A program made the position numbers and the translations under genes. A stretch of 64,000 bases of DNA from Octopus vulgaris. Its lineage: Eukaryota. Positions 57,941 through 58,488 of the stretch are shown here, in pieces (the first letter of the stretch is position 1; each line of letters begins with the position of its first letter). The stretch covers positions 16,864,001 through 16,928,000 of the forward strand of contig OX597825.1 of the NCBI GenBank assembly GCA_951406725.2. The letters run 5' to 3'. The notes under the pieces are model-generated. The model had not been told where the DNA came from and searched no databases. It saw nothing but the letters and a program-made list of their open reading frames with translations.

Positions 57941-57945
<5 letters not shown>

Positions 57946-58488
57946 GTTGTATACTGTCAATCTAACACGAACGTGACAGTAGGGAGGTACACCACCGCTG
58001 TATAGCCCTAGGAAGCATCGACGCCTCCTGATGGCTTTGACACATTTTTCCCTGTGTCCTTATATACATTTACGAAGGGGAGACAAACACCCCCGGCCGC
58101 CGGAGCTGCATCTAGGGACACGTGTTTCAGGAGCATTGTCCTTCATCGGCCTAGAGTAGCAGACACCGGTCAGCCGGCGATATTTGTCTCGACTTCGTAT
58201 TGTATATATCTATAATTCAGTGAAGTCTATTCACTGATTATCAAAATAAGAAATACTAAATTTCTAAATCTCTCGTAGAGACATGTACGGTGGTGGGCCC
58301 CTTCGTAAATGTATATAAGAACAGAGGGAAAAAATGTGTCAAAGCCATCAGGACGCGTCGATGCTTCCTAGGGCTATACAGCGGTGGTGTACTGTCACGT
58401 TCGTGTTAGATTGACAGTATACAACCATTCTATCGCCCCTCCACCGTACATGTCTCTACGAGAGATTTAGAAATTTAGTATTTCTTAT
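57941..58488 (-). mobile_element. Hammerhead-bearing retrozyme/PLE-LTR-like element with an inverted partial copy, embedded in (TA)n
   Basis: Order A(57941-58080)-core-B(58246-58293)-A'(58298-58430)-B'(58441-58488), where A' and B' are reverse complements; (TA)n on both sides. Confidence 0.8.
58111..58155 (-). ncRNA. Minimal type-I hammerhead ribozyme
   Basis: Minus strand UCUAGG-CCGAUGA-AGGA-CAAUGC-UCCU-GAA-ACACGUGU-C-CCUAGA: 6-bp helix I, 4-bp helix II, palindromic helix III and a GUC cleavage triplet; U4C core variant. Confidence 0.85.

Follow-up and report, generated by a model that had tools for sequence, protein, structure and literature searches.

How did a short repeat with a predicted self-cutting RNA come to lie as a head-to-head pair inside a (TA)n tract of octopus DNA? 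The window analyzed here is the full stretch of 64,000 nt, in whose numbering all positions are given, and near its right end two unequal copies of one unit face each other in opposite orientations. The unit closes on itself at 363 nt, encodes no protein and is present in high copy. We consider it likely, at a probability of roughly 0.7, that it is a non-autonomous non-LTR retrozyme of Octopus that uses the reverse transcriptase and endonuclease of Penelope-like elements (PLEs). The features needed for this argument are the following.

57526..57854, plus strand: abundant SINE-like repeat, outside the unit
57855..57864, plus strand: 10-mer identical to the B-A linker (exact match)
57908..57940, no strand: left (TA)16 half of the target, with microhomology between its last 3 nt and the linker
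57941..58297, minus strand: near-full copy, 357 of the 363 nt of the unit, or 360 with the 3-nt microhomology
57941..58080, minus strand: segment A, which follows the cut site in the RNA sense and has two predicted hairpin domains
58061..58208, minus strand: predicted long imperfect rod with the hammerhead at its tip (arms 58061-58116 and 58150-58208)
58111..58155, minus strand: type I hammerhead motif, predicted cut between 58117 and 58116
58246..58297, minus strand: segment B; family copies repeatedly end at its left edge, next to AT-rich DNA
58298..58488, plus strand: inverted, 5'-truncated half copy of 191 nt (part of A, the linker and B)
58432..58437, plus strand: linker closing B onto A; the same joint, with variants, occurs in contigs of public runs
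58486..58503, no strand: right (TA)n half of the target; its first 3 nt are common to the element end

When 57500-58700 was compared with the window by BLASTN, arm A (57938-58080) matched 58433-58298 on the opposite strand over 144 columns at 91.7% (E 2e-50), the differences being an 8-nt indel, a 1-nt indel and three substitutions. Arm B (58246-58297) matched 58488-58437, again on the opposite strand, over 52 nt at 98.1% (E 2e-20). These matches agree with the sequence-only reading of this DNA, which had described an A-core-B order in the forward copy and B joined to A in the inverted one: the minus strand of the inverted copy runs from B through a short linker into A. Adding the linker to the forward copy yields a closed unit of 363 nt with a GC content of 46.3%, in which the longest ATG-started frame on either strand has 43 codons. 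Together with a descriptor scan for ribozymes, this upholds the further claim of a self-closing unit of about 360 nt with one hammerhead and no ORF. The near-full copy (57941-58297) has its RNA sense on the minus strand, spans the hammerhead cut site and directs its 3' end toward the left TA tract, while the inverted half copy (58298-58488) lacks the hammerhead and directs its 3' end toward the right TA tract. The right end of the half copy extends 57 nt beyond the left end of the element, leaving a one-sided tail. The joint between the two copies is blunt, with no shared letters. No direct terminal repeat was found in the element, and no ORF in or beside it.

Is the closed unit a property of this locus or of a family? 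A search of public sequencing runs returned 20 runs containing the unit, from nine studies and under four organism labels, none of them recorded as RNA. The forward copy alone was aligned to the contigs of four runs (X1, X8, X9 and X14; 76% of X1 was covered), and 2162, 1011, 73 and 141 contigs were aligned, respectively. The sequence-only reading had considered that the unit might turn out to be single-copy; it is multi-copy, with many variant contigs in the public runs, 2162 and 1011 of them in the two large runs, where contig numbers and depth do not equal copy number. X9 and X14 are RNA by guess only and consist of contigs, so they are not evidence of expression, strand or circularity. All 12 of the B-A joints listed, from a total of 17, run from 58293/58296 to 57941-57943 through variants of the linker (eight in X1, three in X8, one in X14 and none listed for X9). 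Since the junction occurs in many variants and in three of the four runs, closure is family-wide rather than a quirk of the locus. The link from core to B is bridged over the AT tract at about 58199-58216 by variant contigs from X8 (58139-58240), X14 (58121-58237) and X9 (58146-58275); the X14 bridge covers the AT tract only, and that from X9 reaches only 30 nt past the edge of B. Loose ends before 58246/58249 continue into AT-rich or (TA)n sequence in X9 and X14, and the left edge of B is therefore a recurrent end. Among the 32 pieces listed (there are 3402 more), none contains the whole unit or two hammerheads, and no tandem array was seen there. Exact-pattern scans of metagenome, genome and viral contig collections gave no matches.

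Compared with A and B, the hammerhead has about one fifth of the summed depth, and at 58193-58216, where the AT tract lies, about 1% is left. Such a pattern would fit frequent 5' truncation, but also a situation in which A and B are common to another, perhaps autonomous, element. Other head-to-head joints exist in the family, namely record 10 of X14 and loose ends at 58082 in X9 and at 58121 in X1. The last of these comprises seven contigs (window 58121-58141) in which the inverted arm starts somewhere in a stretch of four letters containing the predicted cut site; this fold-back could represent a cDNA ending at a self-cleaved 5' end, its breakpoint blurred by microhomology. Two further forms were noted. 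Loose ends at 57952-57981 in X1, X8 and X14 apparently keep the stem of an A hairpin while the length and sequence of its loop vary, and X9 and X14 have another form in common, in which about 130 letters to the left of 57981 are unlike the unit; it may represent a subfamily or a partner element.

What kind of ribozyme does the unit carry? The descriptor scan of both strands of the 64 kb yielded a single motif of hammerhead shape; it lies on the minus strand, and its core starts at 58149. Helix I has 6 bp and continues past a small internal loop, helix II has 4 bp with A10.1-U11.1 and a 6-nt loop, and helix III has 2 bp with a palindromic tetraloop; the core reads CCGAUGA (U4C) and then GAAA, and the cut triplet is GUC. 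There are thus two departures, U4C and an A-U pair in place of G10.1-C11.1, neither of which has a listed family variant. The window copy additionally carries a private change at the last base of loop II (58133), where nearly all contigs have the base giving A, a residue that presumably takes part in the loop-loop contact. Listed variants inside the motif fall in loop II, at position 7, at one wobble-compatible base of stem I and in one insertion in loop III. We considered conservation of the core as evidence of selection and rejected it, as 14 core positions without listed variants have a P of 0.20. Rfam gave no match in the window at the gathering score and three unrelated sub-threshold matches at E<=10; the core changes are probably why its models miss the hammerhead. 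U4C is described as lowering activity in vitro and as able to suffice in vivo (PMC3088659).

The predicted fold of a single copy is rare in its ensemble (P 0.001 in silico). With two copies of the hammerhead, a double hammerhead becomes the best fold, at -27.7 kcal/mol versus -9.0 for the best fold of one copy, a configuration also reported from repeats of amphibians (PMC7229834). The 'canonical' metazoan type I form is described as having a helix I of 6 bp, a helix II of 4 bp and a helix III of 1-2 bp with a palindromic loop, and the minimal PLE hammerhead as having a long helix II, a short helix I and little or no helix III, although canonical or palindromic-helix-III forms are reported in some PLEs (PMC4209133). 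At 6/4/2 bp, the octopus motif fits the former description and fails the latter, and the label 'minimal PLE type' was dropped because the helix sizes match the canonical definition. These predicted sizes favour a retrozyme over a plain PLE terminal repeat.

The closed unit is predicted to be highly structured. Folded as a circle, the hammerhead strand reaches -137.8 kcal/mol versus -90.8 +/- 5.3 for 100 dinucleotide shuffles (z -8.8; 0 of 100 as stable), with 64% of the RNA paired. A good fold is also obtained for the opposite strand (z -6.0), as for any inverted repeat. Under a mononucleotide shuffle, eight control stretches of the same length from the window scored between z +1.1 and -1.6, and the unit itself -9.2. 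The rod that carries the hammerhead at its tip has a z of -8.1 (0 of 200 shuffles as stable) and helix probabilities of 0.95-1.0; B and A pair with each other over the linker, forming a 9-bp helix (P 0.99). In this model, the rod would hold both ends of a cut monomer together. Do family variants respect the fold? Pair keeping was counted over the 31 variants that reach at least 3% in X1, among the 40 listed of 41: 16 are unpaired, 12 keep their pair and 3 break it, so that 12 of the 15 at paired sites preserve pairing. The count leaves out the nine variants below 3% in X1, of which five break a pair, one keeps it and three are unpaired. Transitions at Watson-Crick pairs produce G-U on the hammerhead strand in 8 of 10 cases (p 0.055), and variants lean toward unpaired sites (p 0.04). 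Putting in all majority letters together weakens the fold to -127.4, the variants being unlinked. At most, the variant pattern is suggestive of constraint at the RNA level.

How did the two copies arrive? PLE insertions are characterized by an inverted 5'-truncated copy, a tail at one end and a bias toward (TA)n, according to the account in PMC8557442 (2021). At the octopus locus, an inverted 5'-truncated copy adjoins the 5' end and the insertion lies in (TA)n, as the sequence-only reading had recognized when it likened the arrangement to Penelope; the tail at one end is 57 nt long, versus the 30-40 nt described for PLEs. According to Frangieh et al. 2024 (PMC11167929), a purified PLE protein cuts AT-rich DNA on both strands and has two internal start sites for reverse transcription, both downstream of its hammerhead; the RNA it uses is mainly uncut. 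In the octopus element both RNA 3' ends point outward, toward the TA tract, and they lie not at the cut site but 176 and 233 nt beyond it in the downstream direction.

We propose the following course of events. Tandem or read-through transcription would produce an RNA that cuts itself weakly, and best as a dimer, and the cut monomer might be ligated into a circle, its ends being kept close by the rod. PLE protein would cleave a (TA)n tract on both strands, and reverse transcription would start from each side, at internal positions 176 and 233 nt past the cut site. One cDNA would have run almost exactly one unit, across the cut site; the other would have ended 191 nt in, where a strong helix has its foot. 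Joining of the two cDNAs end to end at their 5' ends would then generate the inverted copy and the one-sided tail of 57 nt. Two priming events on the two sides of one break, with two template molecules, constitute the simplest account. The arms differ at places where the family varies, namely an extra T after 58044 and a length change near 57981-57988, which points to two templates. Because the long copy crosses the cut site, we infer an uncut or a circular RNA as its template, as opposed to a linear monomer that had been cut. For the short copy, the stop falls on 58080, where the rod's 12-bp helix has its first base, and may reflect a stall of the reverse transcriptase.

The long copy stops 3-6 nt short of a full turn (357-360 of 363 nt), and by chance about 1-3% of phases would come as close. 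A circular template would explain a length so near one turn, a fit found at one locus and noticed after the fact. As a tentative extension, against which we lean, a Penelope enzyme would have gone exactly once around an RNA circle, and the locus would record that single turn. Were it true, and were one-turn copies common in the family, the genome itself would provide proof that retrozyme circles serve as templates of PLE reverse transcriptase. An abundant circular RNA of about 360 nt would then be expected in octopus tissues, kept closed by the attenuated U4C hammerhead.

Could the unit instead be the terminal repeat (pLTR) of an autonomous PLE with an internally repeated end, so that the locus is an ordinary 5'-truncated insertion with its inverted copy and no independent retrozyme exists? 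The insertion footprint is exactly PLE-like in the terms of PMC8557442, and A and B are much deeper in the runs than the core; one contig (record 15 of X14, RNA by guess) departs from the unit into 104 unlike letters upstream of 58237. Truncated PLEs with oppositely oriented hammerheads 100-700 bp apart have been described (PMC4209133), and retrozymes and pLTRs are reported to be often homologous, as in 24 of 57 Xenopus families (bioRxiv 10.64898/2026.07.22.740005). Against this stands the position of B, which lies both upstream and downstream of the hammerhead, with both links present in several variant contigs; therefore at least part of the family leaves no room for an ORF. The hammerhead helices, moreover, are canonical and not minimal. 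Aligned contigs that continue into unlike sequence make up a share of 0 in X1 and 0.01 in X8, a weak argument because contigs break at junctions. On balance, we regard a mere terminal repeat as improbable.

A retrozyme-like unit might also have been moved by a different retroelement, such as a non-LTR element with a restriction endonuclease (Dong-R4 type), which likewise favours microsatellites. The window contains a broken non-LTR retrotransposon relic at 43714-44433 (plus strand) that has no Pfam match and whose motifs resemble the restriction-like endonuclease domain of the R2/R4/Dong type; its fragment 44137-44430 has a single match, to a predicted protein of Octopus vulgaris (78% identity over 60% of the query), which points to Octopus or a near relative as host without singling out the species. 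Dong-R4 is named among the most active LINE groups of O. vulgaris (PMC13282606). Yet the unit and this relic have no common 3' end by BLASTN, and PLEs are the elements described as having two internal starts, a second copy in inverted orientation and a tail on one side only, which makes such a carrier very unlikely. Least probable, by a small step, is a fold-back at the DNA level, in which a local inverted duplication or MITE-like hairpin carries the hammerhead as a passenger or dead relic. Much of the fold indeed derives from inverted repeats, both strands fold well, and the core has activity-lowering changes. The inverted arm, however, contains the B-A junction that is missing in the forward copy and so was not copied from it; the arms differ at family-variable places, as two templates would; and the G-U bias favours the hammerhead strand (p 0.055).

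For a retrozyme mobilized by a PLE, a helper must exist. No reverse transcriptase or GIY-YIG family was detected by Pfam among 299 stop-to-stop fragments of at least 45 aa in the window, low-complexity fragments being left out, and no partner PLE for the unit was found there. A stop-ridden frame at 45031-45330 (plus strand) with a YYVGCT motif near 45154 was the only GIY-YIG-like candidate in motif scans. It was rejected: with X at the stops it matched no Pfam family, it had one match to an unrelated 14-residue repeat in a library of representative proteins, and none of five candidates among longer proteins lent it support. The PLE GIY-YIG relics that had been placed in this window from its letters were thus not recovered by Pfam, motif scans or protein searches, though a relic may have decayed so far that its fragments fall below 45 aa. 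Another relic without a Pfam match, at 48686-49108 (minus strand), presumably resembles the C-terminal end of a CR1/L2-type LINE ORF. O. vulgaris is reported to have 190 Penelope-like families, 31 of them recently active (PMC13282606), so a helper is available in the genus.

Where does the octopus unit stand among known systems? Metazoan non-LTR retrozymes are described as non-coding units of 150-450 nt with a GC content below 50% (Cervera and de la Pena 2020, PMC7229834), and those of the mussel Mytilus galloprovincialis have repeats of 350-390 nt (PMC7229834). Like the retrozymes so described, the octopus unit is short and non-coding, has less than 50% GC and a canonical type I hammerhead, is present in many copies and is predicted to form a highly self-paired RNA. 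The retrozymes have no LTR, PBS or PPT, and in the octopus element a search for direct terminal repeats gave none. Unlike their head-to-tail arrays, the octopus locus is a head-to-head pair with one hammerhead; its core has U4C and A10.1-U11.1, its host is a cephalopod, and it is known here from sequence alone. Membership among metazoan non-LTR retrozymes is likely rather than proven, because the pieces listed hold no tandem array and cleavage and circles are predictions. Metazoan retrozymes, including the mollusc ones of 350-390 nt, are already known, and the octopus unit likely adds a new member.

Dependence of animal retrozymes on PLEs has already been argued in print (PMC7229834; PMC7761336; bioRxiv 10.64898/2026.07.22.740005), and vertebrate non-LTR retrozymes have been proposed to be non-autonomous PLE derivatives (Li, Clavereau, Pollet 2026, bioRxiv 10.64898/2026.07.22.740005). 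The proposed dependence is the same for the octopus unit, and a further likeness is that monomers and short arrays are common among the vertebrate elements in that preprint; the evidence there is co-occurrence and pLTR homology, and here it is an insertion footprint. The preprint counts as 'active' two consecutive hammerhead units, whereas the octopus locus has one hammerhead; no mollusc appears among the classes it names, and it reports that eight of the nine retrozyme dimers predicted in Xenopus failed to cleave in vitro. With PLEs as described in PMC8557442 and PMC11167929, the octopus element shares the (TA)n target, the inverted 5'-truncated copy, an extension at one end, two putative internal starts of reverse transcription downstream of the hammerhead and a template that was probably not cut. 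It differs from them in the absence of an ORF, in a hammerhead that is canonical and not minimal, and in a tail of 57 rather than 30-40 nt. The octopus insertion also shows 3-nt microhomology at both ends, whereas the Anolis PLE enzyme is reported to start without homology (PMC11167929). Newt satellite 2 and axolotl HHR_Amex are similar in their unit length of 330-350 nt, their weak helix III with a palindromic tetraloop and a predicted dimer-type cleavage (PMC7229834; PMC6155905). Those amphibian repeats form long tandem arrays, and their activity and circles were shown experimentally, while our unit is described from its letters.

In the literature searched, whose scope lay outside Repbase, Dfam, subscription papers and the supplements of bioRxiv and PMC7229834, we found no description of a cephalopod retrozyme or of this family. 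The family may already be catalogued in Repbase, Dfam or the PMC7229834 supplement, and bioRxiv supplements could list Octopus. The portions available of a 2026 repeat annotation of O. vulgaris, main text and supplement, contain neither 'hammerhead' nor 'ribozyme' (PMC13282606), and 235 hammerhead_1 matches are reported for the giant squid (PMC6962438). A retrozyme in Octopus would extend the non-LTR retrozymes to cephalopods with a high-copy family that Rfam models miss. The mobilizing partner of animal retrozymes has so far been inferred from co-occurrence and homology, and the present locus offers a clean footprint on which both PLE mobilization and a circular template can be tested. Start and stop points could be mapped over thousands of footprint-bearing copies, which would make PLE mobilization, and the choice between circle and uncut multimer as template, computable. 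The family-wide U4C core is, in addition, a natural test of how weak a retained hammerhead can be.

The DNA left of the element has its own history. The SINE-like repeat at 57526-57854 contains an internal (TG)n/(TA)n stretch, recurs at many other positions in the window by BLASTN, and stops at 57854. Alignment with eight other copies shows that it lacks about 55 nt present in all of them and has the linker-like 10-mer instead. That a lone copy of the linker lies at 57855-57864 had been pointed out before and is correct to the letter; the window contains the 10-mer in exact form twice, here and as the linker itself, against 0.035 expected by composition. It sits at the breakpoint of the SINE-like repeat, and in the alignment a similar G-run occurs in that repeat's own continuation, so the 10-mer may be either a stray remnant of the element or deleted SINE sequence.

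Other repeats in the window include tandem arrays of 182-184 nt at 60038-60473 (2.4 copies) and 18100-18465 (2.0 copies), which belong to one abundant family; the descriptor scan found no hammerhead in either, and their folding energy is ordinary. Five tandem copies of an 80-nt unit, with 93% matches, occupy 53603-54002. About 12 degenerate TTAGGG repeats lie in an interior position at 59218-59285, 700 nt to the right of the element, and in the stretch beside them 59118-59147 recurs inverted near 59552-59585.
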